Source of the DNA: a virus | Lineage: Duplodnaviria; Heunggongvirae; Uroviricota; Caudoviricetes | Length of the DNA: 64,000 bases | IMG/VR virus record: IMGVR_UViG_3300010344_001272 | Location: 11,046-75,045 of that record | Reading direction: 5' to 3' (one strand) | Shown: in pieces, positions 16,902 through 34,710 of the stretch | How positions within the stretch are numbered: the stretch's first letter is position 1 | Layout: each line of letters begins with the position of its first letter | Notes under the pieces: generated by a model | What the model saw: the letters and a program-made list of their open reading frames with translations, nothing else | The model's database searches: none | Told to the model about the DNA's origin: nothing | Translations under genes and position numbers: made by a program

Positions 16902-16974
16902 CCCGATGTGGCGCAACGGTTAGCGCAAGCGGCTTATATCCACGAGGTTGGGGGTTCGAATCCCTCCATCGGGA
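16902..16974 (+). tRNA. 73-nt tRNA with anticodon loop CTTATAT (TAT, Ile/AUA); weak anticodon stem
   Basis: acceptor CCCGATG/CATCGGG 7/7, D arm GCGC-AACGGTTA-GCGC, T arm GGGGG-TTCGAAT-CCCTC; anticodon stem AGCGG/CCACG has two mismatches. Confidence 0.5.
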
Positions 16975-16979
16975 CTATT

Positions 16980-17061
16980 CCGGATGTGGATGAATGGTTT
17001 AGTCACCAGTCTGATACACTGGGTTCTTTGAACAATGTAGGTTCGAGTCCTACCGTCCGGA
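16980..17061 (+). tRNA. 82-nt type-II-like tRNA with anticodon loop CTGATAC (GAT, Ile)
   Basis: acceptor CCGGATG/CGTCCGG, anticodon stem CCAGT/ACTGG 5/5, 14-nt variable arm with GTTC/GAAC stem, T arm GTAGG-TTCGAGT-CCTAC; long variable arm atypical for Ile. Confidence 0.5.
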
Positions 17062-17098
17062 CTAAGTATTTTCTTGAAATAATATGCTGTTGATTTTA

Positions 17099-17115
17099 GA
17101 TATATAAAATAAAAA
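17099..17115 (+). promoter_or_regulatory. T4-late-like promoter motif GATATATAAAATAAAAA
   Basis: 3 nt upstream region of endonuclease paralog. Confidence 0.4.
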
Positions 17116-17117
17116 GA

Positions 17118-17750
17118 ATGGCAAGAAAATCAAGAAAATTTATTTGTGAAAAATGTGGAAATGAATTTGAATCAAAAAGAAAAGATGTTAGATTTTGTTC
17201 TAATAGTTGCAGGGCTTCAATTATAAATATGGGTAGAAAACCATTTAATTTTGTTGAAGGAAAAATTAGATATTGTTTAACATGCGGAAAAAAACTTCAT
17301 CATCAAACTAAAACAGGATATTGTGTTGACCATTATGTAACAGATGATTTTAAAGACAAAATTAGCAAAGGCGTTAAAAAAATAGGTGGGGGCGGATATC
17401 GAAAAAACTCAGGAAGAGGTAAACATGGGTGGTATAAAGGATTTTGGTGTGACAGTAGTTGGGAATTAGCTTGGGTTATTTATAATTTAGATCACGGAAT
17501 AAAATTTGAACGTAATACTAAAGGATTTGAATATATTTTTGAGGAAAAAATTTATAAATATTATCCAGATTTTAAAATATTAAAAGACAATTTGTACATA
17601 GAAATAAAAGGATGGATAGATGAAAAAAACAAAGCAAAAATTTCTCAATTTAAAGGTTTTTTAAAGGTATTATTTAGAAATGACATGAAATATATTTTTG
17701 AATACGTTGAAAATAAATACGGAAAACAATTTATAAAAATGTATGAATAA
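17118..17750 (+). CDS. putative homing-type endonuclease, paralog of 3390-4052
   Basis: N-terminal CEKCGNEFESKRKDVRFCSNSC zinc ribbon and C-terminal YYPDFKILKDNLYIEIKGW block. Confidence 0.4.
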   Translation: MARKSRKFICEKCGNEFESKRKDVRFCSNSCRASIINMGRKPFNFVEGKIRYCLTCGKKLHHQTKTGYCVDHYVTDDFKDKISKGVKKIGGGGYRKNSGRGKHGWYKGFWCDSSWELAWVIYNLDHGIKFERNTKGFEYIFEEKIYKYYPDFKILKDNLYIEIKGWIDEKNKAKISQFKGFLKVLFRNDMKYIFEYVENKYGKQFIKMYE

Positions 17751-17834
17751 CATGGAGAGTTGCCAGAGTGGTCTATCGGGGCAGCCTGCTAAGCTGTTGA
17801 ACGCGATATGTGTTCCGTGAGTTCGAACCTCACA
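17744..17834 (+). tRNA. tRNA-Ser(GCT), type II, CCA encoded
   Basis: acceptor GGAGAGT/ACTCTCC, anticodon stem GCAGC/GCTGT, loop CTGCTAA, T arm GTGAG-TTCGAAC-CTCAC. Confidence 0.8.
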
Positions 17835-17895
17835 CTCTCCGCCACTGAAAACGATGCTAAAGTTATCCCTGTTTTAAGTAGCGGAAGTTTTAGGG

Positions 17896-17982
17896 ATGAC
17901 AAACTGGAGAGTTGGCAGAGTTGGTCTATTGCGGCAGCCTGGAAAGCTGTGATCGAGAGATTGGTCCGTGGGTTCGAATCCC
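17896..17982 (+). tRNA. tRNA-Ser(GGA), type II
   Basis: acceptor GGAGAGT/ACTCTCC, anticodon loop CTGGAAA, T arm GTGGG-TTCGAAT-CCCGC. Confidence 0.8.
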
Positions 17983-18075
17983 GCACTCTCCGCACTTGGT
18001 GTAATCACGGAACGAACCGTGTCTTTGGAAATGGCCACCAAAGAAGCATTTGATGTTGATGCAGCCTTGGTATAC

Positions 18076-18140
18076 GGTGGTATTAGTGTTAACGGTTAGC
18101 ACGCAAGTCTGTGGAACTTGTAGTGAAGGGTTCGAATCCC
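18076..18140 (+). tRNA. tRNA-His(GTG) with encoded G-1 opposite C73
   Basis: G-1 then acceptor GTGGTAT/ATACCAC 7/7, D arm GTGT-TAACGGTTA-GCAC, anticodon stem CAAGT/ACTTG, loop CTGTGGA; T stem only 3 clean pairs. Confidence 0.75.
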
Positions 18141-18178
18141 ACATACCACCAAATGGACAAAATTGTCCCTTCTAGACT

Positions 18179-20910: not shown

Positions 20911-21318
20911 ATGGGAAAACAAACAAGAAAAAATAGCGCTCGCTTTATACTCAGATTACACTCAGTGATTGATGTCATAACAAATTCAAGTACTGAATTG
21001 TTTATCATTGATAAAGAAAAAGGACTTCAATATGTTCAAGAAATTGTTAATGAAGCTTTAAAGAAATTTCCGCCAAAATATGGAGAACATATTCCGTATG
21101 TATCTATTGAAAATCCAGAATATTATGATGGAAATTGTGGAATTTTTGATAGTCAAGATGCTATTAAACATCTTGAAAGCAGAGGGTATAAAGTAATACC
21201 CCCTGAAGTTCCGCAAGAACCTGAAGCTATTATTATATCATGGGAAAGGGGATATATGAGTGAAGGCTTCATAAATTATATTTCGAATGTATTTGGAGTA
21301 GAACCTACATATAATTAA
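20911..21318 (+). CDS. member of the IDVITNSSTE(L/I)F-motif family
   Basis: LHSVIDVITNSSTELFIIDKEKG near N-terminus; four more paralogs at 29.0-31.1 kb. Confidence 0.4.
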   Translation: MGKQTRKNSARFILRLHSVIDVITNSSTELFIIDKEKGLQYVQEIVNEALKKFPPKYGEHIPYVSIENPEYYDGNCGIFDSQDAIKHLESRGYKVIPPEVPQEPEAIIISWERGYMSEGFINYISNVFGVEPTYN

Positions 21319-21320
21319 TT

Positions 21321-21995
21321 ATGGGACTTGATATTTGCCTTTATAAGATTCAGCCATTAAATGGTCGCGATCCTGAAAAAATAAGGGAAGAAGAATATGC
21401 TAACACTACAAATTTACATGTTCATTACATTGACGAAGAGCTGAATAAAGATTTCGTAGAATTCTTTAAGGATTTTATTTTTGAATCGAAGGAATCTGTG
21501 TATGATCTTGAAGGATTATTGGCTGAACAGGGGTATACATGGGAAGCCATTGATCGAAGAGATGATGACTATTCTTATCGAGATGATGACTTTCACCCAG
21601 GTGATTTTCAATTTATTATGAAGGATGGCAAGGTTCTTACATTCAATAATGCTCGAACCATTATGCAACCATATAAAGGTTGTCTTTGCGAAGAAGTTGG
21701 TTATCAAAGAAAAGGTGCCAATCGGTCATTTTATGCCGATGGGATGTGGGACAGCGCCGATGTTTTTAAAATGGAAACTCTTTTAGAACATTGGGAAAAA
21801 TACTTTTCAGGAGAAGGAAATGTCAAAGGAGAGGGTGGAATAAAAATCCGGGAAGGAAAGGTATCTGTTGAAGAAGGAGTTCCATGGGGATTTGGTGTTG
21901 AATATGACAACACTGCTGAAGAAAATAAAGCGAGATTCAAAGAAAATATTATCGATAATTTTGTTCAAGGAGAAACCTTTGTAGTATATTGTTGA
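21321..21995 (+). CDS. hypothetical acidic protein
   Basis: 224-aa ORF. Confidence 0.35.
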   Translation: MGLDICLYKIQPLNGRDPEKIREEEYANTTNLHVHYIDEELNKDFVEFFKDFIFESKESVYDLEGLLAEQGYTWEAIDRRDDDYSYRDDDFHPGDFQFIMKDGKVLTFNNARTIMQPYKGCLCEEVGYQRKGANRSFYADGMWDSADVFKMETLLEHWEKYFSGEGNVKGEGGIKIREGKVSVEEGVPWGFGVEYDNTAEENKARFKENIIDNFVQGETFVVYC

Positions 21996-21996
21996 T

Positions 21997-22335
21997 ATGA
22001 GTGACGAACATGAAGATCAAATATTTGTAAGAAATCACTTTACAGACTTTGAAAAACTTCTTTTTGCACAAGATGAAATAAAACAATTAAAAAAGAACAA
22101 TTCAGAATTAAGTGTTGAAGTTGGAAAGTGTCAATCTTACATAACTGAACTTGAAGAAACTATTCGGCAATTAAATTCCAATCCAAGATCAGAAGAAGAA
22201 AAAAAGGAGTTAAGAAAGTTACAATATAACGAAGAACTTTTGAGACTAAATAAACAATTAATGGAAAAGTGCCGCAAATTAAAAAAGGACAACGACGAAT
22301 TAATTTATAAATTGTGTAAAAATGAAAACAGGTAA
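21997..22335 (+). CDS. hypothetical coiled-coil protein
   Basis: heptad-rich 112-aa ORF. Confidence 0.35.
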   Translation: MSDEHEDQIFVRNHFTDFEKLLFAQDEIKQLKKNNSELSVEVGKCQSYITELEETIRQLNSNPRSEEEKKELRKLQYNEELLRLNKQLMEKCRKLKKDNDELIYKLCKNENR

Positions 22336-22936
22336 TACGAGGGCAATTTGCAAAAAAGGCAAGCATGGCATGACCAAGCACGGAGTTTACTCATATAAAA
22401 ATGGAACGATTGTTTCCATTCGGTGTTTAGAATGTGCGAAAGAACAAAAAAATATTCGTCGGCAAAACAAAGAAAAATATGAACATGACAAAGCATATTC
22501 TAAACAATGGCATAAAGATAACAAAGATAAACTTCGCCAGAAACGTAGTGTTTTGAGAACCAAAGAACAAGAACAAAGAAAAAGAAGAGTTGAAAATTAT
22601 TTTAAGGAAATGAAACCTGAAATAATGAGACTATTAAAAACTCTCGAATCTACGTTGACCTTTAAGCAAATAAAAAGCCACTGTTATCGTTTTAACATCA
22701 CTTCTATTTATAAAATAAAAGAATTCATTATAAACAACAAAAGAAGTCAATTATTGGATCGTGAAGCATACATGCAATCATATGTTGTGAAATATGCATG
22801 GGGAATTGCCGGCAATGGATTTAATAATTATTCTTCATTGCCTGAACGAACAAAAGAAAAAATAAGAAAGGAATACAAGGATAAGGCCAAAAATATTGTA
22901 AATAAAAAAATGGTCGAACTTTGTGCTAATATTTAA
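22322..22936 (+). CDS. hypothetical K-rich protein with zinc-finger-like Cys pairs
   Basis: 204-aa ORF. Confidence 0.35.
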   Translation: MKTGNTRAICKKGKHGMTKHGVYSYKNGTIVSIRCLECAKEQKNIRRQNKEKYEHDKAYSKQWHKDNKDKLRQKRSVLRTKEQEQRKRRVENYFKEMKPEIMRLLKTLESTLTFKQIKSHCYRFNITSIYKIKEFIINNKRSQLLDREAYMQSYVVKYAWGIAGNGFNNYSSLPERTKEKIRKEYKDKAKNIVNKKMVELCANI

Positions 22937-22945
22937 AAAATTGTT

Positions 22946-22953
22946 TATATTTG
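22946..22953 (+). promoter_or_regulatory. Bacteroidetes-type -7 box TATATTTG upstream of GC-rich ncRNA candidate
   Basis: matches TAnnTTTG consensus. Confidence 0.3.
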
Positions 22954-22957
22954 TTCT

Positions 22958-23150
22958 TTAAATAACTAAGAGGACTTGTCGCTTCGCAAGAAGAGGAACT
23001 TCAGGACATCTCTGCTAAATGCGGGAGGGCTAAACCCCGATACTACCGCAGAGGATGCGAGCCAAACAGACCGAGGCGGAAAGCAGGCCAATGAGGTCGG
23101 GTTGGTGCTTAGAGAAATGACGAGATAAAACAGAATCCTGGGTACGCTCA
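22958..23150 (+). ncRNA. candidate structured ncRNA (unclassified): about 190-nt GC-rich ORF-free island
   Basis: roughly 50% GC versus about 30% background, no ORF on + strand, several short hairpins including CTTC-GCAA-GAAG tetraloop and GGG-CTAAA-CCC. Confidence 0.4.
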
Positions 23151-23172
23151 AGTTATTTTTAAAAATATTTTT

Positions 23173-23457
23173 ATGGCAGAAAATAGAGGTAATCGAAATC
23201 GAAGAACTTCCCTAGAACAATTAGAGAAGTTTCCATTGTCCGAAGAGGAAAAAATTAATTATTTTAGAATTGCTTTGGGACTTCAAAAAATTGGAGTTGA
23301 CAATGAAATGGCAGACCGCATCATACAAACATATGAAGCGGTAACTCATTTAGGAGGAAATTTCAGTATTCATGATGCCGTTGATATAGAATTATCTCTT
23401 GATCGAAAATATCGTAAAAAAGATGTTGTCGTAAGGGCTGAACCAGATGTACAATGA
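23173..23457 (+). CDS. hypothetical protein
   Basis: 94-aa ORF. Confidence 0.3.
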   Translation: MAENRGNRNRRTSLEQLEKFPLSEEEKINYFRIALGLQKIGVDNEMADRIIQTYEAVTHLGGNFSIHDAVDIELSLDRKYRKKDVVVRAEPDVQ

Positions 23458-23732
23458 GTGCATTTTCTAAACTAAAAGATTATATTAATTCTATACCAAT
23501 AGGAGAAACAGTTTATAGGAAAGAATTAATTAGATGTTTGAATTCATCAAGTTTAGATTTGTATCGTAGAAGATTGTCTTTATTAGGTTATATTTCTGAA
23601 GGAGAAGGAGATGGATCGTATAAAAAATTGAAACAAATTCCAGATGATTTAAAAACTTCTGACCTGGAATCAGCTTATAAGAATAAAAGATTTAAATTAA
23701 AGAAAAATGCCAGAATTAAGAAGAGTATCTGA
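23454..23732 (+). CDS. hypothetical protein
   Basis: 92-aa ORF. Confidence 0.3.
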   Translation: MSAFSKLKDYINSIPIGETVYRKELIRCLNSSSLDLYRRRLSLLGYISEGEGDGSYKKLKQIPDDLKTSDLESAYKNKRFKLKKNARIKKSI

Positions 23733-24030
23733 TGGGGCAGGAGATGCCGGTTCAATGGTTGATGCCATTGCATGGAATGAAGATGGAACATTTAAAGAAA
23801 TTGCCGGTCATAAACCAATGATCGGTTGTTCTCTTAAAGTTGGTAGTCCATTTGCAAGATCATATTCCAATCAAGATTGGTGGATGACTACTCCTATAAC
23901 CGAAATTATCGAGGATATTGAAAAGGAAGATGGACATTATGTTCGCTTTAAAACTCAAAATAGCGAATATGAATATTTTTCGGGAAATGCCTCTTTATGG
24001 GCAAAAACAAAGAAACGAATAAAGAAATGA
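23707..24030 (+). CDS. hypothetical protein
   Basis: 107-aa ORF. Confidence 0.3.
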   Translation: MPELRRVSDGAGDAGSMVDAIAWNEDGTFKEIAGHKPMIGCSLKVGSPFARSYSNQDWWMTTPITEIIEDIEKEDGHYVRFKTQNSEYEYFSGNASLWAKTKKRIKK

Positions 24031-24434
24031 AATATTGGGTATTGTCTGCATTACTATTATTTTCAATGAGTTTGTTTTCACAAACTTATGATAGTTTTGT
24101 AGCATATTCACCGACATATGAAAGTACTGTTGAATCCAAAGAAACTACTATTTCCATAAAAGAAGATAAAAATTCCATTACATTTTATAATGCAACATAT
24201 GATGGAGAGGTTACGAATCTTAGAATAGATTCCGTTAAAACGAAATATTGGACCTATGAATTGGGAGAAGTAAAAACTTTCTTCTGTACGGATTTAGATG
24301 AGGATATGATGATTATTGTATTAGATTTAATAAATCTGAAAAATACAATAAAACTTATTTATATTTGGGATGAAATATCTATAGAAGAATATTCATTTAT
24401 AGTTAAAAAAGATGAAAGCAGAATTACAAAATAA
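23997..24434 (+). CDS. secreted hypothetical protein
   Basis: signal peptide after N-terminal K-rich stretch. Confidence 0.35.
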   Translation: MGKNKETNKEMKYWVLSALLLFSMSLFSQTYDSFVAYSPTYESTVESKETTISIKEDKNSITFYNATYDGEVTNLRIDSVKTKYWTYELGEVKTFFCTDLDEDMMIIVLDLINLKNTIKLIYIWDEISIEEYSFIVKKDESRITK

Positions 24435-24894
24435 ACTCGTAAGTAAATATCCAGAATTTTTTGAATATTTGAAGGAGAATGAAACTCCTATGATTGATCC
24501 TTCACAACCCGTTATACACGAGGTTGAAAAATTATTAAATCAAGAGAAAATAGTTCTTCCAATGCAGTTTGGAATTGAATGCGGAAATGGCTGGTATTGG
24601 TTGTTAGATCAATTAATGGACACAATTTATTCTTATTGTAAAAACAATAATAAACCTATTCCGCATGTTTCTCAGATAAAGGAAAAATGGGGAGGTCTTT
24701 GTTTTTATGCAGGTGGAGATCAAATGATTCATGGCATGATATGGCTTGCAGAACACATGTCATATAGCATATGTGAAACCTGTGGAACAAACAAAAATGT
24801 GGGCCAAACCGAAGGGTGGGTTTACACTATCTGCAAAGATTGCTATGAAAAAAACGAAAGAGCAAAAAACTTAAACTTTAAACTTAGAACATAA
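24412..24894 (+). CDS. hypothetical Cys-rich protein
   Basis: 160-aa ORF. Confidence 0.35.
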   Translation: MKAELQNKLVSKYPEFFEYLKENETPMIDPSQPVIHEVEKLLNQEKIVLPMQFGIECGNGWYWLLDQLMDTIYSYCKNNNKPIPHVSQIKEKWGGLCFYAGGDQMIHGMIWLAEHMSYSICETCGTNKNVGQTEGWVYTICKDCYEKNERAKNLNFKLRT

Positions 24895-25103
24895 TGGCAG
24901 AATCAAAAGCAGCAGCTTCAGGTGGCGTATCATTAGCAACTGTATTAGTTGCTATATTTGTGGTTCTTAAATTAACCCATGTTATTGATTGGTCTTGGTG
25001 GTGGGTATTCTCACCTTGGTGGATTGGGCTTGCGATATTCATAGGAGTATTAGCAATAATCGGTCTAATTGCTGGAATAGTATTAATTTTTAAAAACTTG
25101 TGA
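24894..25103 (+). CDS. small two-helix membrane protein (holin-like topology)
   Basis: 69 aa, two hydrophobic helices, W-rich. Confidence 0.35.
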   Translation: MAESKAAASGGVSLATVLVAIFVVLKLTHVIDWSWWWVFSPWWIGLAIFIGVLAIIGLIAGIVLIFKNL

Positions 25104-25104
25104 A

Positions 25105-25332
25105 ATGAGTAAAGTAACTACCTATGAAAGACTTCCAGAAAGTCTTGGAGGATTTGAAGTTGAAGTATTTTGGGAACTCGGCGATCAATATGATGACGCT
25201 GGTGATGGTCATTGCTTCTTCTATCATGCAGATGGTTATTCTCCATCAGGATATAGATTCTCTGGATCAGCCAGTGTCGTTGATGAAGAATGGGACTCTG
25301 TTGAAGATGTTGAATTTGAAGGAGAAGAATGA
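25105..25332 (+). CDS. small highly acidic protein
   Basis: 75 aa, D/E-rich. Confidence 0.3.
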   Translation: MSKVTTYERLPESLGGFEVEVFWELGDQYDDAGDGHCFFYHADGYSPSGYRFSGSASVVDEEWDSVEDVEFEGEE

Positions 25333-25919
25333 AAACTTGGCTCCTTATTTTCATAATATTATTATTCTTTGCATTTTTATTAGGATGGATAGGATTTTTA
25401 ATATTAGGAGCATTTACTATAGCATTAATTATTAAACGTATGAAAAAACAAAATCGAATTATTTTAGTTGGACCCACTGCATCAGGAAAAAATTTCATTA
25501 GATCTAAATTTGCCGAAAGGGGATTTAGTTTTGATGTATCATATACAACTCGTGAACCCAGGGAAGGAGAAGAATTTGGAGTCGATTATAATTTTATCTC
25601 CAAGAACGAATTTGAAAAAATGATAAAGGACAATGCCTTTTATGAATGGGTTGAATATAATGGAAACTATTATGGTACTGGTTTATGGGAATTCAAACAT
25701 TCTGATGTATTCATAATGGAAACAGATGGAATTAAACATTTGAAACCAAAGCACAGAAAGAAATCATTAGTAATGTTTGTCAATACTCCTGAAAATGTTC
25801 GAATTGAACGAATGAAGGAAAGAGGATGGGATGATGACAAAATTGCCAATCGTATAAAAACCGACAAAGAAAAATTTGATAATTTTACAGATTTTGATTT
25901 GCAAATTCAATCGATATGA
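25329..25919 (+). CDS. gmk: guanylate kinase-like nucleoside monophosphate kinase with N-terminal membrane anchor
   Basis: P-loop GPTASGKN, SYTTREPREGEEFGVDYNFIS ... YYGT signature. Confidence 0.65.
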   Translation: MKTWLLIFIILLFFAFLLGWIGFLILGAFTIALIIKRMKKQNRIILVGPTASGKNFIRSKFAERGFSFDVSYTTREPREGEEFGVDYNFISKNEFEKMIKDNAFYEWVEYNGNYYGTGLWEFKHSDVFIMETDGIKHLKPKHRKKSLVMFVNTPENVRIERMKERGWDDDKIANRIKTDKEKFDNFTDFDLQIQSI

Positions 25920-26491
25920 ATGTTGCTATCTATGGTGGTGCATTTAATCCCATCACCTTAGCACATATACAAGTAATTCAGGCTGTTTTAAATCATGGGT
26001 TTGATGAAATTTGGATAACTCCAACATTTAAACACAGATTTAATAAGATGATGGAATCGTCTGATCACAGATTAAAAATGTGTGAAATTGTAGCTGAAAC
26101 AGATAAACGAATTCGTGTGTTTGACTATGAAATTAAACATCAGCTTTCAAATGGAACATATGATTTCATAAATCGATTAAAACAAGAAAAAGAATTAAAT
26201 CATAACTTTAGCATGGTTATTGGTTTAGATAATGCAAATATTTTTGATAAATGGGCCAATAGTGAATTACTTAAAAAAGCTATTCCGTTTGTTGTAATTT
26301 CTAGACCAGGATATGAAGTCATTCCTAATTCTTGGTATTTAAATGCACCACATATTTTTATACAAACGGATGTCATTAATGTTTCTTCAACAGTAGTTAG
26401 AGAATTAATAAAGAGAGATATAGATGCTTCTAAAAAATTCCTGTTATATGATGTTTGGGAGTATATATTAAATAATAATCTTTACTTATGA
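25916..26491 (+). CDS. nicotinate/nicotinamide mononucleotide adenylyltransferase
   Basis: IYGGAFNPITLAHIQ nucleotidyltransferase (H/T)xGH-type motif, length 191 aa. Confidence 0.6.
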   Translation: MNVAIYGGAFNPITLAHIQVIQAVLNHGFDEIWITPTFKHRFNKMMESSDHRLKMCEIVAETDKRIRVFDYEIKHQLSNGTYDFINRLKQEKELNHNFSMVIGLDNANIFDKWANSELLKKAIPFVVISRPGYEVIPNSWYLNAPHIFIQTDVINVSSTVVRELIKRDIDASKKFLLYDVWEYILNNNLYL

Positions 26492-27024
26492 TACATCCTA
26501 TAGTAACATATGGAAGTGATTTATTAACTCAGAAATCTGGAGAAATTCCAAGAAATTTTCCAAACATTCATGAGTTGATAGATGACATGTTTGAAACCAT
26601 GCATAAAGCTAATGGTGTAGGATTATCAGCTATTCAAATCGGAATTCCATTACGAATTTTTGTCATTGAAGTAACTCGTCAACGTGCCGATGATTTTGGT
26701 TTTAGAGGTATATTTATAAATCCATACATTCGAAAAGAATTTGGAGATAAAGTAAAATTTACCGAAGGATGCCTTTCCGTTCCCCTTATTACCGCTATGG
26801 TAGAAAGAAGTGCCGAAATAGAATTAGAATATTATGATGAATATTGGAAACATCATGTTCATAAATTTGATGGAATGGCAGCAAGAATAATTCAACATGA
26901 ATATGATCACTTAGAAGGCATAATTTATGTTGAAAGATTAAACTCCCTTTGGAAAGAGGCACTTAAAAATCCATTACAAGAAATTAAAGAAAAGAAGTTC
27001 GAAGTCAATTATTTAATAAAATAG
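26488..27024 (+). CDS. def: peptide deformylase
   Basis: GVGLSAIQIG, EGCLSVP, QHEYDHLEG motifs. Confidence 0.8.
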   Translation: MIHPIVTYGSDLLTQKSGEIPRNFPNIHELIDDMFETMHKANGVGLSAIQIGIPLRIFVIEVTRQRADDFGFRGIFINPYIRKEFGDKVKFTEGCLSVPLITAMVERSAEIELEYYDEYWKHHVHKFDGMAARIIQHEYDHLEGIIYVERLNSLWKEALKNPLQEIKEKKFEVNYLIK

Positions 27025-27096
27025 TTGGAAAAAATTTTTTGTTTTCGTTTTTTTGTTTATATTAGCAAAAATTATTAACGAACAAATCACACAATT

Positions 27097-27645
27097 ATGA
27101 AAGGAAAACTTATTGCTTTAGGTGTAGTTTTAATCCTCGGAATCGGAATTGCTATTTGGGCTATCGGAGTTTCGAATGATGAAAAACGCCTGGTTAACAA
27201 AATGGATGCACAGAAAGAAGTGATCGGCCTTTACTTCGACAAAATGTGGAAAATCCTGAAAGAGAAAGCTGGTGTTGCTGATGCAGCCAAAGAAGCTTTC
27301 AAAGAAATCTATGTACCCCTTATTGAAGGCCGATATTCCCAGGGTGATGGTACTCTTATGAAGTGGATTACCGAACAGAATCCAACATTTGATTTATCAC
27401 TTTATAAAGATGTCCAGAATTCCATTGAAACAGAACGTAATGGCTTTTTTGTCGAACAGGCAAAAATGACCGACATGAACCGGGAACATGAAAATATGCG
27501 CGATTTATTTCCTCGCAGCATTATCTGTGGAAAACGCCCGGCTTATGATTATACACCGATTACATCCGCTTTGACCAAAGAAGTTCAGCGCACGGGTGAA
27601 GAAAATGATATAGAGTTATTCCCCAAGAAAGATGGAAGCAAGTAA
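27097..27645 (+). CDS. LemA family membrane protein
   Basis: N-terminal TM, overall LemA layout, C-terminal FPRSIICG matching LemA FPGSIFAG. Confidence 0.5.
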   Translation: MKGKLIALGVVLILGIGIAIWAIGVSNDEKRLVNKMDAQKEVIGLYFDKMWKILKEKAGVADAAKEAFKEIYVPLIEGRYSQGDGTLMKWITEQNPTFDLSLYKDVQNSIETERNGFFVEQAKMTDMNREHENMRDLFPRSIICGKRPAYDYTPITSALTKEVQRTGEENDIELFPKKDGSK

Positions 27646-27841
27646 ATTTGTCTCAAAATACTGTCAGGGAGAAAAATGTGGTATGTGTTGGGGCCAGGAG
27701 CATAAACTGGTCCCAGCTACCCACAAAGTTCAAGAAACACTTTTCGATGATGACCCTCTCAAAGAAAGACATGAACTAACACAATATGTTTGTGACCGAC
27801 ATTTCAGAAGTATCTTTGGAACACCAAAACAAAACGCTTAA
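27632..27841 (+). CDS. small zinc-finger protein
   Basis: CQGEKCGMC ... C..H. Confidence 0.3.
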   Translation: MEASKFVSKYCQGEKCGMCWGQEHKLVPATHKVQETLFDDDPLKERHELTQYVCDRHFRSIFGTPKQNA

Positions 27842-29107
27842 ATGCTTATCTACCTAACACTCCTCATTCCAATATTTACCACATTTGGATTTTACATCTT
27901 CTTCAAACACAAGTTTAGATGGTGGGAATTCTTCATTCCAATTGCTTGTACTCTGATCGTTATCGTTATAACCAAATTAATTTTCGACACATCAAATCTA
28001 AAATTTGACGAGTGGTGGGGTTCTACTGTTGTAGAAGTATACGAAGAAGAACCATACAATGAATGGCATCATCAGACTTGTACACGTTCGGTTCCTTGTG
28101 GTACGGATAGTGATGGAAATACAGAATATTGTGATGAAACATATGATTGTTCTCATCAAGATGATTATGGTCCATCATGGTATATGGAAACTAACATTGG
28201 TGAACGAGTTTATATAACTGAGGCCGAATATGAACACATGAAGGCTTTATGGGGAACACCAAAGATAACCATTAAACAAATTAAAAATCATTCCCCAAGA
28301 GATTGGGCTGTTGGTTCTAAAGGAACTAAATTTGAAGGGCAGAGGGTTGGCCAGGTTTCTCATTTTTATAAATGCGAATGGAATAATGTTGATTTGACAA
28401 GGGTTCCATTTGTTTCTCGAAGAGTTTATGAAAACCGTGTAAAAGCTTCTGACTTATCAGTTTTCAATATTTCTATTGTAAAGGAAAAGGATGCTGACAG
28501 TTTAAAATTATTCAAATATCCTGAAAAGGGGCCAAGAGGAAACGATGGACTTTATTTTCCAACAATACTCGGGGGAAATGTTTCCGAAGATGTTCACCAA
28601 CGATTCCGTCAGCTAAATGGAAAATTTGGGGTGTCAGATTCCCTGCGTCTTTGGATTCTTATATTTCCAAGCGGCACTCCAGAAGTGAATGCCTCATATC
28701 AAGAAAACTACTGGGTCAAGGGAAATAAAAATGAAATAGTTGTATGTCTAAGTTTGAATAAGGATAATACCCTGCAATGGGTTCATACATTTTCATGGGG
28801 AATGCCTACAGGAATTGCCGAATCTTCAAAAATGCAAGCTATTTCTATTGATACACTTGATAACAAAGGGATGATGGAATATGCTGATTGGTTTGATAAA
28901 AACTTGCATATTTATAAACAAAGAGATTTTAATAAGGAATTTTCTTACATAAAATTAAAGCCAACGGTACCATCTATCATAACTATTATTATATTAGCAC
29001 TGTTAACCTCTATTGGAACCAACATATGGGCCATTAAAAATGAAATTGACGATGAAGAAACAGATCATAGCAATAAGCACTCATTCATTCATAGACGTTA
29101 TTACTAA
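27842..29107 (+). CDS. large membrane protein (two N-terminal and one C-terminal TM helices), LemA-partner-like
   Basis: topology typical of the membrane proteins encoded next to lemA genes. Confidence 0.4.
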   Translation: MLIYLTLLIPIFTTFGFYIFFKHKFRWWEFFIPIACTLIVIVITKLIFDTSNLKFDEWWGSTVVEVYEEEPYNEWHHQTCTRSVPCGTDSDGNTEYCDETYDCSHQDDYGPSWYMETNIGERVYITEAEYEHMKALWGTPKITIKQIKNHSPRDWAVGSKGTKFEGQRVGQVSHFYKCEWNNVDLTRVPFVSRRVYENRVKASDLSVFNISIVKEKDADSLKLFKYPEKGPRGNDGLYFPTILGGNVSEDVHQRFRQLNGKFGVSDSLRLWILIFPSGTPEVNASYQENYWVKGNKNEIVVCLSLNKDNTLQWVHTFSWGMPTGIAESSKMQAISIDTLDNKGMMEYADWFDKNLHIYKQRDFNKEFSYIKLKPTVPSIITIIILALLTSIGTNIWAIKNEIDDEETDHSNKHSFIHRRYY

Positions 29108-29543
29108 CAGTTCTTCCGAATTGTTCGTATTAGGTGACGCTAAGTCTATTGAGGCTGTAAAAGAATTACTTCAGGTAATGCTTGACCATTGGAATCAAAT
29201 GGCTGTTCAAGGTATTTTTGGTTCTCATTATGTCACTAATGAAAGGTATTCTTTAGCTTCGAACGAAAAAGCTGAATACAAACCTATCAAAAATTGGAAT
29301 GACACTTTTGGCAATGTTTACATTTATACTGAAGACAGGTACAATGCAGATATGGCTGAAATGGAAAGATTTAATAAACAATATCCTAATCGGGATTATG
29401 AACCTGGATGGGGATATGAAAAGAAAGAAAACATCGGCAAGATTTTTATTGAAAGCGAAAGTGATAATTCAATTCCACATGAAATGTTTGAATGGATTGA
29501 ATCTGCTTTCGGTTATCACACTCAAAGATACCACTTAGGATAA
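29052..29543 (+). CDS. IDVITNSSTE(L/I)F-motif family protein
   Basis: ISTHSFIDVITNSSSELFVLG; start chosen at MKKQ to limit overlap with upstream gene. Confidence 0.4.
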   Translation: MKKQIIAISTHSFIDVITNSSSELFVLGDAKSIEAVKELLQVMLDHWNQMAVQGIFGSHYVTNERYSLASNEKAEYKPIKNWNDTFGNVYIYTEDRYNADMAEMERFNKQYPNRDYEPGWGYEKKENIGKIFIESESDNSIPHEMFEWIESAFGYHTQRYHLG

Positions 29544-29824
29544 TGGCAACGCAATTAACAACTAAACAAGAATTCATCGATCTCCTTAGTAAGGAAATCA
29601 AAGATGATGAAGTAATTCTTTTTACCACTGAATTTGATGGCCAAGCATATGCAGCCTCAAGTAGAAATCCATACATACGACTTCCGTTTGCTTTTTCGGG
29701 AGATGCGTTAAAAGAATCTCAGGGATTAAATCATATTCTCAAAAATGCTATATTTGCTGCGATGATTGTCCCGAAAGAAAAACTGACTGATGCAGCAATT
29801 GAATTATTAAATTCTAAAAAATGA
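29543..29824 (+). CDS. hypothetical protein
   Basis: 93-aa ORF. Confidence 0.3.
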   Translation: MATQLTTKQEFIDLLSKEIKDDEVILFTTEFDGQAYAASSRNPYIRLPFAFSGDALKESQGLNHILKNAIFAAMIVPKEKLTDAAIELLNSKK

Positions 29825-30273
29825 AAATAAAAATTCCACTTCATTCCACAACGGATTTGATTACCAATTCATCCACTGTTATTTTTACATACAGTGAGAA
29901 TTCGGTAGGAGCTCTCAAAGAAATGATTGATGAGCTGTTTAAAACTTTCGGTATTGAAAAAACATGTGAAGATGTTTTTGATACTGTGATTACTTGTGAA
30001 GATTCTTGGCCTTATGAAGAATATGCCCGAGAAAATGAAATTGAAGGAGTAAACATTGATGAAATTGATCAATTGCTCAAAGATGTTACAGCCGGAAAAA
30101 CTCCAAAACCTGAATGGTTTAACGATGCTGAAAAAACAGAATCTTGTTGTGATTATTACACACCTACAACGATTTTGTCTCTTATTCCAAAATCGGCGGA
30201 GTATGAAAGACTTGGAAGCTTAGTCGAAAACTTTTTATATTCACCCAATCACGAAGCAACAAGAGATGGATAA
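29821..30273 (+). CDS. IDVITNSSTE(L/I)F-motif family protein
   Basis: IPLHSTTDLITNSSTVIFTYS. Confidence 0.4.
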   Translation: MKIKIPLHSTTDLITNSSTVIFTYSENSVGALKEMIDELFKTFGIEKTCEDVFDTVITCEDSWPYEEYARENEIEGVNIDEIDQLLKDVTAGKTPKPEWFNDAEKTESCCDYYTPTTILSLIPKSAEYERLGSLVENFLYSPNHEATRDG

Positions 30274-30751
30274 AGTTATCAAAATTCCCGTACATTCTCA
30301 GATTGATGTAATTACAAATTCATCAACAGAGATATTCGTTCATAGTGAAAATTCTATTGAACCGGCCCGCGAACTGTTGGCTGAACTTCTAAAAATGGAT
30401 GGTTCAGACAAGAAAGTTGATGATGTATTCGAAATATCTACCAGAATGGAAGAATGGAATCTGGAGCAGATGATCGAGTATGGAAGTGAAGATATCGATT
30501 CTGACGAACTTCAGGAAGAACTTGGTATCGATCCGAAATTGCCCTACAAAGAAAAGGAAAAGGAAATTAAAAGGGTTGTCAAAGAAATAATGGACGGAAC
30601 CCGCTCTGTACCTGAAGTACTTGAAGATTATGATTCAGGGATTCAGACATTTTTGGTGGTTAAATCAAAAGACCCCAAATATGATAAGTTCCTTGATCTC
30701 CTGGTTAAACTGGTTTATTCACCTGATTGGTATGAATACAGCAACAACTAA
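30266..30751 (+). CDS. IDVITNSSTE(L/I)F-motif family protein
   Basis: IPVHSQIDVITNSSTEIFVHS. Confidence 0.4.
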   Translation: MDKVIKIPVHSQIDVITNSSTEIFVHSENSIEPARELLAELLKMDGSDKKVDDVFEISTRMEEWNLEQMIEYGSEDIDSDELQEELGIDPKLPYKEKEKEIKRVVKEIMDGTRSVPEVLEDYDSGIQTFLVVKSKDPKYDKFLDLLVKLVYSPDWYEYSNN

Positions 30752-31073
30752 AATAAAACTCGGAACGATTCAAGTACATAGCGTCATAGACGTTATTACG
30801 AATTCTTCTACGGAAATCTTTTGCACTGTTGAAGGAAAAACCGAAGAAGCTATTCAAAAAGTCATAGACAAGATTTTAAAAGATTTTGACTGTGAGTGTT
30901 TGAAGAATGGAGATTTCGGAATGTATGTACAAGAACATTGGGATTATAAAGATGACCACGAAGTTCTCGTTAAAGGGAAATTCGATATCTATTATAATTA
31001 TGGATGTAAACCGTGCAAAATGATTTATGAAGAACTCAAAAAACGTTTCTCAGTCATTAATTTTAACGACTAA
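30732..31073 (+). CDS. IDVITNSSTE(L/I)F-motif family protein
   Basis: IQVHSVIDVITNSSTEIFCTV; internal ATG start. Confidence 0.4.
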   Translation: MNTATTKIKLGTIQVHSVIDVITNSSTEIFCTVEGKTEEAIQKVIDKILKDFDCECLKNGDFGMYVQEHWDYKDDHEVLVKGKFDIYYNYGCKPCKMIYEELKKRFSVINFND

Positions 31074-31363: not shown

Positions 31364-32501
31364 ATGACAAACAGAAAAATTATTCTCGCGATTGCCTTTG
31401 GAGTATTGGCAGTAATTTTTATCTTCCTTGCAGGAGGAATTTTTGAAACTAACCAGGCTGGTTATTTCCAGGTGAAGCAGGCTGCTTTTACTGGAAAAAT
31501 GACCGTTCGTCTCAACCCAGGAACCTATTTCCAGTGGTTCACATCGCGGTGATGGAAGTGCTGACATCGATGCAGTTCCTGTAATATTTAATGACGGTTC
31601 GAAAGCCGTTATATCTGGACTTATTCGTGTTAAATTGCCTTCAACATCAGAAAGTGCTATTCATCTTAAAAACGAATATGCTGGTGGGTTTGACCATTTT
31701 ATTAATTCAGGCGTTGTTCCTATTGTAAATAACGCTATTAAACTTGCCGCTAACCTACGTTCAGCCCAGGATGCTTATACCACACTTGCTCTATTCCAAC
31801 AGGCGGTTGAAGACCAGCTTAAAAATGGTATATATGTAACCAAATCTGATAAAGTAACTATTACCAGAAGTACAGGTGATACAGAAGAACAGCGTATTAC
31901 AGCTATTGTTTATGGACCAGACGGTAATCCTCTTCGAATGGAGAACCGACTTCAGCAGTTAGGATGTGAAGTTCTTGAATGTGTTATAGATGTTCCATCA
32001 TTTGATGCAAAAGTTGAAGAAATGATTGCCAAACGTAAAGATGAAGCTATGAAAACAGAACTTGCAAAGCAGGAAGCTATTCGCGCACAACAGGATGCTC
32101 TTACTGCAGAACAGCAGGGTCTTGCTAACGTTGCCAAAGCTAAATACGAAAAAGAAGTTGAAAAGGTTCAGGCTGTTACTCAGGCACAGAAAGAATTTGA
32201 GGTTGCTCAGCTTCAGGCCAAAAGGGAAGAGCAGAATAAACTCGCTAAAATCTATGAAGGTCAGGGTATTGCTGAATTCAACCGTTTGAAAGTCCAGGCC
32301 GGTCTTACTCCTCAGGAAAAAATGGAATGGGAATATAAGACCAAAGTTGGTGTTGCAGCTGAATTAGCTAAAGCACAGCCAGGAGCATTCGTTCCAAGTG
32401 TTATGGTTGCCAGCGGCAGTGGAAATGGTGTCAATGCCATGGATGCTGTTGGTATCAACATGCTTTTGGACGTCATGAACAAAATGGACACTAAGAAGTA
32501 A
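31364..32501 (+). pseudogene. SPFH/band-7 (HflK/C-like) gene split by a frameshift near 31540
   Basis: TM plus NPGTYFQWF in frame A; frame B continues IDAVPVIFNDGSKAVISGLIRVKL and a long coiled-coil tail. Confidence 0.5.
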
Positions 32502-32808: not shown

Positions 32809-32846
32809 ATCCCTCTAGATTTTTTATTTAGAGGGTTTTTTTTTAT
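32809..32846 (+). terminator. Rho-independent terminator
   Basis: CCCTCTA ... TAGAGGG followed by T9. Confidence 0.6.
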
Positions 32847-32848: not shown

Positions 32849-33103
32849 TTGTATTCTATGGACGAAGTTGAAAAAATATACGATCAGTCATTTGACAAAT
32901 ACTATAGCCGTTACGGTACTATTTGGGAAACATGGAGTTGGGAACATTGGCCATTTGGACCAGGACGATCACAAAAAGTTAAAGACCGCATTAAGGAATT
33001 ATTGGAACAGGGATATAGAGTGAAATGCGGATATGCTGCTACAAAGATAAGAAACGTACATGATAGATTTATATTCTATAAACCAAAAACCAAACTTAAA
33101 TGA
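32849..33103 (+). CDS. hypothetical protein
   Basis: 84-aa ORF. Confidence 0.3.
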   Translation: MYSMDEVEKIYDQSFDKYYSRYGTIWETWSWEHWPFGPGRSQKVKDRIKELLEQGYRVKCGYAATKIRNVHDRFIFYKPKTKLK

Positions 33104-33996
33104 TAAAAACACGCGTTTTTCCTGAACACAACTACAAAGCCATTCATATTAATGGCAAAACAATTCGTATTGCTCTTAACCCTAAGATGCCTATTGATGA
33201 ACTAAGTTATCCTGAATTCTATGATGTAAAGGTAACACCATATTGCGAAGGAAACTGTCCCTATTGTTACCAGAATAGCCTGGATTCTAACGATCATCCT
33301 AAGGATATTATCAAAAGGTTTCTTGCTTTCTTCAGTCCTATGAATGAGAATCAAAAGCCTTTTCAAATTGCTTTCGGGGGTGGCGAACCAACAACTCATC
33401 CTGATTTTGCCGAACTTATGAAAGTTTGTTTTGATATGGGCATCATGCCTAATTATACTACAAACGGAATGTGGGTAAATTTCGATGAAAATCACAAAAA
33501 CAAACTAATTTCATATACCAAAGAATATTGTGGTGGTGTGGCAGTTTCAACACATCCTCATCTACACAGGTTTTGGGAAGAAGCAACCAATATTTACATC
33601 AAAGAAAACATCTTCACAAATCTCCATATAATAATTGGAGACAGATATTCTATTGATGAATTTTCAAGAGTTTACAAATTGTACAAAGGATTCGTCAAAT
33701 ATTTTGTTTTGCTTCCACTTACAGCACAAGGAAGAGCAACCGAATCATTTGTCGATTGGGAATATTTCAAGGATAAAATTGATGGAAGCCCAGCTGATAT
33801 AGCATTTGGCGCTAATTTTTATCCTTATCTTTGTAAGGACCCTCATAGATTTACTGTTTCACTTTATGAACCAGAAATCATGTCTGCTTATCTTGATTTG
33901 GAAGATATGAAAGTTTACAAATCAAGTTTTAGTTCATGCGAGAAGAAAGTTGGAGATTCAAAATTTCAGGAGGTAGTATGTCAATCGGTCAAATAA
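33100..33996 (+). CDS. radical SAM enzyme
   Basis: CEGNCPYC CxxxCxxC cluster and GGGEP motif. Confidence 0.6.
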   Translation: MIKTRVFPEHNYKAIHINGKTIRIALNPKMPIDELSYPEFYDVKVTPYCEGNCPYCYQNSLDSNDHPKDIIKRFLAFFSPMNENQKPFQIAFGGGEPTTHPDFAELMKVCFDMGIMPNYTTNGMWVNFDENHKNKLISYTKEYCGGVAVSTHPHLHRFWEEATNIYIKENIFTNLHIIIGDRYSIDEFSRVYKLYKGFVKYFVLLPLTAQGRATESFVDWEYFKDKIDGSPADIAFGANFYPYLCKDPHRFTVSLYEPEIMSAYLDLEDMKVYKSSFSSCEKKVGDSKFQEVVCQSVK

Positions 33997-34253
33997 TTTA
34001 TGGCATTGGAACATCTGCACTAATATCATTTCCTATAGCACTGGCATGTTGGAAATTTTTTAAATGGAAATTAGATACATGCACAACTATCGGAGCTGCA
34101 GCTTTTGGCGGAACTATTAGCTTTTTTGGATTTAACATCATAGCTAAATGGCCATTATGGCTTCTTACACTAGCAGCAATAATGATATATGTTATTGTTC
34201 AAAGAATTGCACTTGATCATATAGATAAAATTTATGGCAAAAAAGAAAGTTAA
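33978..34253 (+). CDS. small membrane protein
   Basis: RBS AGGAGG then MSIGQIIYGIG..., three hydrophobic helices. Confidence 0.35.
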   Translation: MSIGQIIYGIGTSALISFPIALACWKFFKWKLDTCTTIGAAAFGGTISFFGFNIIAKWPLWLLTLAAIMIYVIVQRIALDHIDKIYGKKES

Positions 34254-34710
34254 AACTTGTCAGGAATTAGTTGATTCTTGGGAAGAAAAGATGGAGAAAG
34301 GTCTAACGAATAGACCACGCATCGTATTAAACAGGATTAAAACTCCTGATGGAACAATAATAACTTCTTATCATGTTCATGATTATGTTACCCATTTGGA
34401 CAAAAATGGTAAAGAATACATGGTTGATGGAGGTTTAGATTATCTTCGTAGAAATGTTCATGAGGATGCTCCTTATGAAGAAATGTCAGTCACAACCGAA
34501 GCTCCATTTGAACAGGTTCGTGAATCAATGCATTGGGGGACTTTTGGTAAAAAAGGAGATCAACCATTGAGATATGTTACAGTCAGCCAAATGACTGATG
34601 GACATATCAACGCTATTCTTGATCAGGAAATGGGTGCAGCTTGGGTTCGTGATATTCTTTCTGAAGAATTGAAATACCGAAGAAAAAAAGGAATAACCAT
34701 AACAGATTAA
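34234..34710 (+). CDS. hypothetical protein
   Basis: 158-aa ORF. Confidence 0.35.
   Translation: MAKKKVKTCQELVDSWEEKMEKGLTNRPRIVLNRIKTPDGTIITSYHVHDYVTHLDKNGKEYMVDGGLDYLRRNVHEDAPYEEMSVTTEAPFEQVRESMHWGTFGKKGDQPLRYVTVSQMTDGHINAILDQEMGAAWVRDILSEELKYRRKKGITITD

Follow-up and report, generated by a model that had tools for sequence, protein, structure and literature searches.

In the 64,000-nt stretch of phage DNA analysed here (the window), the pattern HSxxD[VL]ITNSS[ST]x[IL]F is found near the N-terminus of exactly five ORFs, all on the + strand, which we refer to as p1 to p5 (Table 1). p1 is a lone copy located ~8 kb upstream of an array formed by p2-p5. The sequence-only reading of this DNA had described four of the copies as lying in tandem; the array itself stands, yet it is not uninterrupted, being broken by an unrelated 93-aa ORF. 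At its upstream side p2 overlaps the gene of a 421-aa membrane protein by 56 nt. A radical SAM enzyme gene is located 2 kb from p5, with four genes inserted between the two, and is preceded by a terminator-like hairpin.

Table 1. Features of the window discussed in the text
Feature	Length (aa)	Position	Strand	Motif position	Residue of motif His	Remark
p1	135	20911-21318	+	20959-21003	17	
ORF matching phrog_1383		27097-27645				
p2	163	29052-29543	+	29082-29126	11	
Unrelated ORF	93	29543-29824				
p3	150	29821-30273	+	29842-29886	8	
p4	161	30266-30751	+	30293-30337	10	
p5	113	30732-31073	+	30777-30821	16	
Terminator-like hairpin		32811-32835				
Radical SAM enzyme	298	33100-33996	+			PF04055, E 1.7e-8
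Peptidase_S77 gene		36663-39014				T4-type head gene
Gp23 gene		39095-40852				T4-type head gene

A six-frame scan of the window located both D[VL]ITNSS and the bare TNSS at five sites only, all of them within p1-p5, while the numbers expected by chance from the six-frame composition of the window are ~0.0007 and 2.1, respectively. The proposal that the five ORFs are paralogs with a shared N-terminal motif is therefore correct, and they constitute a real family. All five have in common H-S-x-x-D-[VL]-I-T-N-S-S-[ST]-[EV]-[LI]-F, with Val in place of Glu in p3 (NSSTVIF). The codons of the motif vary synonymously between the copies (Ser is encoded by TCN or AGY, and all four Thr codons are used), and the synonymous sites are saturated. 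As the synonymous codons differ, the motif is conserved at the protein level and not through recent gene conversion or a DNA element.

Outside the motif, the five proteins are divergent (22-32% identity to p1) and acidic (pI 4.3-5.4; family-wide median 4.67), in agreement with the earlier description of their bodies. Members of the family are 100-330 aa long and Gly is the last residue in 56% of them. Bodies of different subfamilies cannot be aligned, and the N-terminal motif alone is common to all; each paralog belongs to a separate subfamily of orthologs in which the C-terminus is conserved, the C-terminal motifs differing among subfamilies. The p1 subfamily, with orthologs including P0003 (93%) and P0013 (61%), carries the C-terminal signature ISWERGxMSxxFIxxIxxxF; at locus L012 the array lies only 1.9 kb from the p1 ortholog. 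p2 is the 'HLG-type' core member and terminates with ...SESDNSIPHEMFEWIESAFGYHTQRYHLG-COOH. Proteins of this type have invariant residues at both ends (H, S, D, T, N, S, S and E, then D-N-S-x-P and R-x-H-L-G), with the C-terminal motif DNSIP...RxHLG-COOH; R-x-H-L-G-COOH is absent from p1, p4 and p5, and exactly one p2-type member is present in ~72% of distinct arrays. The C-terminus of p3, a protein identical to P0010 (present on 17 public contigs), is FLYSPNHEATRDG-COOH, and that of p4 is LVYSPDWYEYSNN. The body of p5 contains Cys residues (CxC...CxxPC); its orthologs include P0012 (80%), and it is missing from the otherwise syntenic L072.

Identities to a related phage are 42-56% for the paralogs, similar to neighbouring accessory genes, versus 75% for the radical SAM enzyme and 75-80% for the capsid genes. 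The orthologous subfamilies and this degree of identity do not agree with the view of tandem diversification as a recent or arms-race expansion; the five paralogs are old, did not arise by recent expansion, and evolve at ordinary rates. AF2 models of p2 (m43711f370a19, pLDDT 85.6) and p4 (m125ceb0dd19f, pLDDT 82.3) show confident bodies with generic ferredoxin-like folds, in which the invariant motif is the low-confidence segment (below 50 at residues 10-19 and 17-25, respectively); in the p2 model the fold begins directly after the motif. The low pLDDT at this site fits a segment that would become ordered only on a partner, or it may merely reflect missing covariation in alignments of 42-43 sequences.

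Database comparisons agreed with the earlier impression that the paralogs are phage-specific, accessory-looking and without a known family, and profile searches recovered no well-characterised housekeeping family. The best Pfam-A match (E 0.031) fails every cut-off, the best match in PHROGs v4 (E 0.0027) is a 65-position profile of unknown function, NCBIfam and PADLOC gave zero matches, and profile searches of PDB sequences gave E values of 0.15 or worse. In BFVD just two proteins match, both uncharacterised and from uncultured phages. The family comprises ~2,650 clusters at 50% identity, with members from metagenomes only and from phage contigs of up to 508 kb; neither the family nor the radical SAM enzyme occurs in 50,697 deposited phage records. 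It is a large, unnamed and virus-only family, and among the larger unannotated phage protein families.

The radical SAM gene, overlooked in the neighbourhood given by the sequence-only reading, is the sole neighbour of the family conserved across all clades, with a homolog in 76 of the 81 family-anchored loci. No conserved peptidase or exporter was found among the neighbours in these loci. When the scan was anchored on the enzyme instead, 78 of 79 viral loci encoded one or more family members on the strand of the enzyme gene. A member is located upstream of the enzyme gene in 70 of the enzyme-anchored loci and downstream only in eight; the nearest upstream member ends less than 100 bp from the enzyme gene in 56 of the 70 (median gap ~25 bp). 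The pairing persists at enzyme identities down to ~34%. Exceptions are L117, with the enzyme and no family member, and L026, with five family copies and no enzyme within 9 kb. The two-way gene coupling of the family and the enzyme is near-obligate and well supported.

The features of the enzyme are C49xxxC53xxC56, GGGEP at residues 93-97 and YTTNG at 119-123, with a conserved extension of ~45 aa before the cluster motif. Its homologs have ~280-305 aa and, across 55 sequences, conserved cysteines are C49, C53 and C56 only; no auxiliary-cluster (SPASM/twitch) cysteines are conserved in this set. PF04055 is the sole domain match, and no PqqD-like (RRE) domain was found. Characterised radical SAM families give weak and partial matches only, including weak matches of the cluster-binding segment to PqqE, SuiB, CteB and other peptide maturases. 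In NCBIfam the enzyme is far under every cut-off; NrdG2 (TIGR02495) reaches 20.5 bits, where the cut-off is 131, and covers residues 49-127 only. The homologs carry the automatic JGI names 'organic radical activating enzyme', 'pyruvate-formate lyase-activating enzyme' and 'AslB'. From its sequence features, the protein is a predicted radical SAM enzyme of the single-[4Fe-4S] type, and it is as conserved as the capsid genes.

Over 419 distinct family sequences the motif is close to invariant (S 98%, D 97%, I 96%, N and both Ser 100%), the T and the first Ser being part of the pattern by which this set was anchored. The motif Glu is present in 85% of the family, and the entire p3 subfamily carries Val. 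At the first position His or Gln occurs, and the variant is uniform within each array: 46 arrays are all-H, 36 all-Q and one is mixed. The H/Q variant tracks the phylogeny of the radical SAM enzyme, and two paralog lineages older than the H/Q split have both switched. Such concerted variation within genomes points to a shared, genome-specific partner.

Judged from the linkage of the family with the enzyme, uncultured phages may possess an enzyme-and-client system of a hitherto undescribed kind. The N-terminal element that defines the family consists of a short beta-strand and, behind it, (H/Q)S-x-x-D-x-I-T-N-S-S-(S/T)-E-(L/I)-F, and would couple each copy to one dedicated enzyme. As the best explanation, held with somewhat less than even confidence, we propose that the paralogs are protein clients (substrates) recognised and modified at the motif by the radical SAM enzyme of the window. 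We infer the physical interaction, the motif as the modified site, the type of chemistry and the biological role. The exposed N-terminal strand would dock on the enzyme, possibly at its conserved N-terminal hairpin extension, and the small polar T-N-S-S loop would enter the active site; there the 5'-deoxyadenosyl radical would abstract a hydrogen, so that all paralogs would receive an identical post-translational change. Their acidic bodies, ferredoxin-like but divergent, would then serve different purposes downstream in the infected host, an anaerobe. In favour of this reading are the two-way linkage, the near-invariance of the motif, its low confidence in the two models, the concerted H/Q variation, the strong conservation of the enzyme, and the absence of family and enzyme alike from the deposited phage records. 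The layout, in which arrays hold 1-6 copies with the motif region as their only shared part, suggests several clients for one enzyme. Against the client reading, the motif contains neither Gly nor Cys and, to our knowledge, no known radical SAM chemistry has a T-N-S-S motif as its target. The rare exceptions L117 and L026 likewise speak against it, as does the position of the enzyme gene in the window, 2 kb away and behind the hairpin. Since the bodies are folded, conserved and have invariant C-terminal motifs of their own, the motif could also belong to a functional site of the domain itself. A more specific version of the client reading is possible, if rather doubtful: in uncultured phages of anaerobic habitats, jumbo phages included, a dedicated minimal radical SAM enzyme would equip the T-N-S-S loop of 1-6 small acidic effectors with a new modification or protein-derived cofactor, in a maturation system new to science whose products, 'armed' host-takeover proteins, would be unparalleled in cultured phages and in cells.

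Similar arrangements are known from RiPP systems (PqqA/PqqD/PqqE, MftA/MftB/MftC, SCIFF/Tte1186), where one radical SAM gene adjoins one or several small genes whose products have a conserved recognition segment at the N-terminus in common and are variable in the remainder. Unlike these, the family consists of folded proteins with conserved bodies and not of short peptides with a leader and a variable core, and the conserved segment would here be the modified site instead of the leader. The ~290-aa enzyme with its three canonical Cys also differs in having no SPASM/twitch or PqqD-like domain, and the present system is phage-only and has no conserved peptidase or exporter. The pairs PFL/PflA, NrdD/NrdG and sulfatase/anSME are comparable in having adjacent genes and a compact radical SAM enzyme whose target is a folded protein, at a short motif that does not vary. 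In contrast to glycyl radical enzymes, the family has no RVxG[FWY] loop and its shared motif is N-terminal and without Gly; R-x-H-L-G-COOH of the p2 type differs in spacing and sits at the extreme terminus. The enzyme fails the family models of PflA and NrdG. The sulfatase motif C/S-x-P/A-x-R is absent from the family alignments, and the enzyme is without the auxiliary clusters of anSME.

A close rival of the client reading, if an unlikely one, is that the paralogs serve the enzyme as subunits or adaptors that are non-catalytic and can replace one another; the motif would dock on, complete or gate the enzyme (a docking or specificity role), and the bodies would recruit different targets, for example a protein of the host, a nucleic acid or a metabolite. 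The linkage and the concerted H/Q variation apply equally to it, and bodies that are conserved, folded and orthologous across phages agree with it. It also draws on proteins with an N-terminal RxGFATNSSS[ST]HS from Salmonella phage Arash (gp146c) and metagenomic relatives, in which T-N-S-S-(S/T) follows a short strand, at residues ~12-16, and a D-N-(S/T) motif is located near the domain end. Such domains occur as tandem standalone copies beside a related radical SAM gene (L171), or, in Arash gp146c, as an N-terminal ATNSSSSHS domain that precedes a radical SAM domain in one fusion protein; subunits are more typically fused in this way than substrates, which counts against clients. However, homology with the Arash-type domain is not established (hhalign probability 3-5%): profile comparison aligns 13 columns only, with a probability of 4.8%, the flanks are R-x-G-F-A before and H-S after in place of H-S-x-x-D before, and the Arash radical SAM domain is just 27% identical to the enzyme of the window. 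We regard the possible relationship as a lead. Arash gp146 is not mentioned in the main text reporting the virion proteome (PMC10585845). The invariant residues, moreover, are small and polar (T, N, S, S), unlike hydrophobic interface residues, and up to six adaptors per enzyme would be unusual.

It is improbable that the paralogs are ligand-binding proteins or enzymes in a small-molecule or nucleic-acid pathway of the radical SAM enzyme, with the motif as an intrinsic phosphate, metal or SAM loop after the first strand and the linkage due to a shared pathway without direct recognition. The many invariant polar residues at both ends of the p2-type core would suit this reading, and the motif loop resembles the Ser/Thr-rich phosphate loop of flavodoxin, S-x-T-G-N-T-E; flavodoxin is the physiological reductant of radical SAM enzymes. 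Yet neither a flavodoxin fold nor a Pfam flavodoxin match was found for the paralogs, which have no Pfam signal at all; the N-terminal motif is all that the subfamilies share, five different enzymes with one 15-residue site and nothing else in common are hard to rationalise, and the genome-wise H/Q concordance favours a shared macromolecular partner. We consider it highly improbable that the family is a fast-diversifying accessory, anti-defence or host-interaction set tied to a LemA-like/membrane module and functionally unconnected with the radical SAM gene, although an anti-defence or host-interaction role as such may still apply. Tandem arrays of small, acidic, phage-restricted proteins are a typical feature of anti-defence loci, and the array of the window has membrane proteins on its flanks. 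The module that had been offered as the relevant context is, however, clade-specific, its components (the ORF at 27097-27645, the 421-aa membrane protein and an SPFH gene) being confined to close relatives. The ORF taken for LemA matches no Pfam family at E ≤0.01 and instead matches phrog_1383, 'virion structural protein', at E 6e-30. PADLOC is silent, orthologs are kept at ordinary divergence, and the radical SAM linkage extends over distant enzymes. Least credible of all is that the motif is a capsid-targeting sequence or propeptide of internal head proteins, which would be packaged by means of their common N-terminus and which a gp21-like prohead protease would cut behind the Glu of SS(S/T)E. 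T4-type head genes are found 6 kb downstream, a gp21-type protease is present in the window, S-(S/T)-E occurs in 85% of members, and in the p2 model the fold starts just behind the motif. The motif S-x-E resembles the cleavage consensus reported for phiKZ gp175, S/A/G-x-E, and T4 gp21 cuts after Glu; tandem paralogs of T4-like phages (internal proteins IPI-III, and the inner-body paralogs of phiKZ) likewise share only a short N-terminal sequence with S-x-E. The family motif is, in contrast, longer and invariant over thousands of sequences, and its Glu is less constant than T-N-S-S and replaced in the whole p3 subfamily. It is missing from the capsid, the protease and all other genes of the window; head genes are near the array in this clade only, the orthologs of related phages are conserved and not hypervariable or hyperplastic, and the conserved partner is the radical SAM enzyme, which this reading leaves unexplained, and not a head gene.

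The pairing gives the family a concrete functional anchor, one dedicated radical SAM enzyme. If the paralogs are substrates, they would represent the first virus-specific radical SAM protein-modification system, in which the target motif and probably also the chemistry would be new; if they are subunits, a new route to diversified radical SAM specificity. The pairing also provides a simple annotation rule for thousands of hypothetical proteins and concerns an annotation gap, as the system is missing from cultured phages, whose hosts are mostly aerobic, and gene callers sometimes cut off the motif. For p2, a TTG at 29013 is an alternative start, and some public gene calls place the start internally (140 aa), by which the motif is lost.

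Exactly five ORFs in the window, all on the + strand, carry the N-terminal motif HSxxD[VL]ITNSS[ST]x[IL]F (p1–p5, see table). Residues H, S, D, I, T, N, S, S and F are invariant in their alignment, and a six-frame scan of the whole window found D[VL]ITNSS, and even bare TNSS, only at the five motif sites, with 0.0007 and 2.1 occurrences, respectively, expected by chance from the window composition. The motif codons vary synonymously among p1–p5, including TCN/AGY serine switches, which indicates that purifying selection on the protein, as opposed to gene conversion or a nucleotide element, keeps the motif. The bodies following the motif are acidic (pI 4.3–5.4) and nearly unalignable with each other. 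ORF calls, alignment and scan thus confirm the five motif-sharing ORFs with divergent acidic bodies described by the sequence-only reading; an unrelated 93-aa ORF (29543–29824) breaks up its "four in tandem".

Features of the window and of two compared loci (L170, L171)
Feature	Position	Strand	Remarks
SprB-repeat protein	786–2474		562 aa; SprB repeats and concanavalin/LamG domain
tRNA island	2849–18151	+	22 tRNA genes; small ORFs interspersed
Standalone Peptidase_C39 domain protein	6761–7267		168 aa; E 3e-14
p1	20911–21318	+	135 aa; motif; group C-terminal signature ISWERGxMSxxF..
Metabolic trio	25329–27024		guanylate-kinase-like (N-terminal TM), cytidylyltransferase-like (NadD-type), peptide deformylase
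p2	29052–29543	+	163 aa; motif; group C-terminal signature SxxDNSIPxExFxWIExAF...RxHLG-COOH
p3	29821–30273	+	150 aa; motif; group C-terminal signature FLYS(T/P)xHEATRDG-COOH
p4	30266–30751	+	161 aa; motif; group C-terminal signature FLYSPDWYEHS..
p5	30732–31073	+	113 aa; motif; group signature a Cys pattern
SPFH/Band-7-like membrane protein, split	31364–31552 and 31635–32501		62-aa N-terminal TM piece and 288-aa piece in a different frame
Radical SAM enzyme	33100–33996	+	conserved gene partner of the family
DUF7695 protein	34234–34710		158 aa; 3′ of radical SAM gene
Patatin-like phospholipase	35427–36488		immediately upstream of head protease
Peptidase_S77 protease, apparent scaffold fusion	36663–39014		783 aa; gp21-type prohead protease domain at residues 9–158
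Gp23 capsid protein	39095–40852
Low-GC block	40883–64000	-	strand switch at ~40.87 kb; GC and AT skew reversed; GC falls to 26–30%
Arash gp146c (Salmonella phage)	L170:3437–4867		annotated "methyltransferase"; in fact RxGFATNSSSSHS domain and radical SAM domain
Two tandem standalone Arash-motif proteins	L171:4493–5489		adjoin related radical SAM gene

Judged by sequence comparison, p1–p5 are old paralogs and not a recent expansion. The best 120 matches sorted into five groups, one for each window paralog, with the C-terminus conserved per group. Between the window and the related phage L009 the paralogs share 42–56% identity, similar to deformylase (60%) and patatin (55%), and no sign of hypervariability was seen; the radical SAM enzyme (75%), the protease (75%) and the capsid protein (80%) are more conserved. 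These groups and identities speak against the tandem diversification proposed earlier, if understood as a recent or arms-race expansion. Long members (200–330 aa) are of the p2 type, in which big insertions separate conserved 45-aa N-terminal and 45-aa C-terminal parts, and in about 72% of distinct arrays this type is represented just once. A C-terminal Gly was found in 56% of 511 family members vs. 2.3% of background ORFs.

No significant match to p1–p5 was obtained in Pfam, PHROGs, NCBIfam, PADLOC or PDB sequence profiles, in line with the earlier impression that no known family is involved. Profile searching across 5.8 billion proteins gave at least 2,708 family members, all unnamed and all metagenomic. 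Exhaustive HMM searching of cluster representatives (50% identity) yielded 2,651 clusters at E ≤ 1e-3, of which 1,264 reached E ≤ 1e-10; of 135 new family representatives, 134 have the motif Asp at residue 7–32 (mode 13). The family occurs in 77 IMG/VR loci (largest contig 508 kb) and, among 185,579 species genomes searched, on only 3 MAG contigs, from one UASB-reactor bacterium and two archaeal bins. Searches of 50,697 deposited phage records by tblastn with p2, p4 and the consensus motif peptide failed to detect it, and megablast of the window region against the same records gave no match. Literature searches on motif strings returned unrelated acronyms only, and those combining radical SAM with phage terms gave nothing on a cassette of family and enzyme. 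One 332-aa metagenomic protein (P0130) has p3-like and p2-like units in series, with full motifs at residues 8–22 and 170–184; it represents two array genes read through as one, or else a natural fusion.

When ORFs of all fetched loci were clustered, homologs of the radical SAM enzyme were the sole cross-clade neighbour of the family. They were present in 76 of 81 dereplicated family loci, almost invariably in the same orientation as the family and immediately 3′ of its last copy. A reciprocal scan, with radical SAM peptide patterns as its sole anchor, gave 79 viral loci, 78 of them with one or more family members. In 70 of these a member precedes the enzyme gene, and in 8 members are found exclusively downstream. 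No more than 100 bp separate the end of the nearest upstream member from the enzyme gene in 56 of the 70 (median gap ~25 bp), and arrays hold 1–6 copies. ORFs in the compared loci were simple in-house calls and the loci are partly redundant, many coming from one gut-like clade; nonetheless, the linkage holds over enzyme identities of 34–100%. We consider the coupling of family and enzyme strongly supported and very probably real. In the window, four genes displace the enzyme gene by 2 kb and a terminator-like hairpin is found at 32811–32835; the compact layout of another locus (L012) runs p1, kinase, deformylase, p2, p3, p4 and then the radical SAM gene, with the kinase and deformylase genes between p1 and p2 as in the window. 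A promoter scan was uninformative (38 sites vs. 38.1 expected). In the sole enzyme-anchored locus devoid of the family (L117), the gene directly upstream (5193–5978) encodes instead 261 aa with a PP-loop-like motif, SGGKAS.

The enzyme (298 aa) contains CxxxCxxC at residues 49–56, GGGEP and YTTNG, and an invariant-rich 45-residue extension N-terminal to the cluster motif; no further conserved Cys was seen among 55 sequences (34–100% identity). Pfam gave PF04055 only, and matches in NCBIfam, PADLOC and PDB were limited to the cluster-binding segment, with NCBIfam scores far under the curated cut-offs. About 1,000 close metagenomic homologs have generic names only, and no ortholog was present in deposited phages, where the top match was Salmonella phage Arash gp146c (27% identity). 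In this protein, a 185-aa domain that starts MYLTQIRYGFATNSSSSHS and contains GGNDNTDY is fused N-terminal to the radical SAM domain; all of the domain's few relatives contain RxGFATNSSS(S/T)HS. Alignment of the two families by hhalign covered only ITNSSTELFV/ATNSSSSHSVV with a probability of 4.8%, giving no statistical support for homology, and we treat the Arash-type domain as a possible sister family, a lead from sequence and not established homology.

The motif also varies in concert within genomes. Immediately before the first motif Ser, 82% of sequences have His and 16% have Gln, and of the arrays that hold at least two copies 46 were all-His, 36 all-Gln and 1 mixed. The motif state tracks the enzyme tree, where there is a single large Gln clade and a single (D/E)N clade. 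Compared without the motif, p2-type bodies of Gln arrays match those of His arrays, a ~105-aa type likewise matches its counterpart, and no body similarity between array-mates was detected; at least two old paralog lineages must then have switched in parallel within the same genomes, as would be expected if the motif contacts a common genome-encoded partner. A His-to-Asn change at enzyme position 152 coincides with the large Gln clade; we set it aside as a coupled change because isolated Gln cases lack it, which leaves it confounded by phylogeny.

Two paralogs were modelled confidently by AF2, on alignments of only 42–43 sequences, with pLDDT 85.6 and pTM 0.76 for p2, and 82.3 and 0.70 for p4. 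A flavodoxin identity, proposed from the Ser/Thr-rich loop, the acidity and the reductant need of radical SAM enzymes, was rejected on the fold and because neither flavin-stacking nor a Pfam signal was present.

As to how the coupling works, we infer, tentatively and at somewhat less than an even chance, that the paralogs could be clients modified by the enzyme at the motif. This is favoured because a small-polar invariant loop, exposed and unmodelled, is all that several divergent proteins have in common, and because the paralogs occupy the precursor position; glycyl-radical activases and anSME offer parallels of motif-directed protein maturation. A close rival, possible if doubtful, would make the paralogs docking or specificity subunits of the enzyme, a view favoured by the fusion in Arash and by bodies that are both conserved and folded. 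That they have an intrinsic ligand site or pathway role of their own is less likely, and improbable in itself.

Two further readings draw on the gene neighbourhood. By jackhmmer, the 93-aa ORF, the TM protein, SPFH, the LemA-like ORF, the 421-aa membrane protein, DUF7695, patatin and the head genes are all clade-restricted. The LemA/membrane module thus loses its standing as relevant context, and the earlier picture of a membrane module in an arms race is quite unlikely. That the motif is a capsid-targeting or cleavage sequence, for which head genes lie nearby in the window, we downgrade to very unlikely indeed, given the Val in p3, the missing head-gene linkage outside the window's clade and the radical SAM linkage.

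Among these neighbours, the DUF7695 gene accompanies the radical SAM gene in nine loci of the window's and neighbouring clades, and not beyond. L002 and L003 carry an intact SPFH/Band-7-like gene (395 aa), L005–L007 a split one; the split form may be a frameshift variant or pseudogene. PADLOC "Effector" phospholipase models match the patatin-like protein from end to end (E 3e-45), and its position is the same in L009 and L072.

The window phage is T4-like. Beyond its protease domain, the 783-aa protein shows a weak coiled-coil-like match (MCPsignal) and is 75–94% conserved in relatives; it looks like a protease-scaffold fusion. Among the genes of the tRNA island are four for tRNA-Arg, three for tRNA-Ser and two each for the Asp, Gly, Lys and Ile tRNAs. 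The island also harbours the Peptidase_C39 gene, of a family cleaving double-glycine leader peptides, 22 kb from the paralog array and with no cassette linkage in other loci. Several glycosyltransferases are encoded in the - strand block (45103–47553, 59435–60622). SprB repeats typify surface adhesins of Bacteroidota, and the SprB-repeat protein may point to the host or to a receptor-binding protein.
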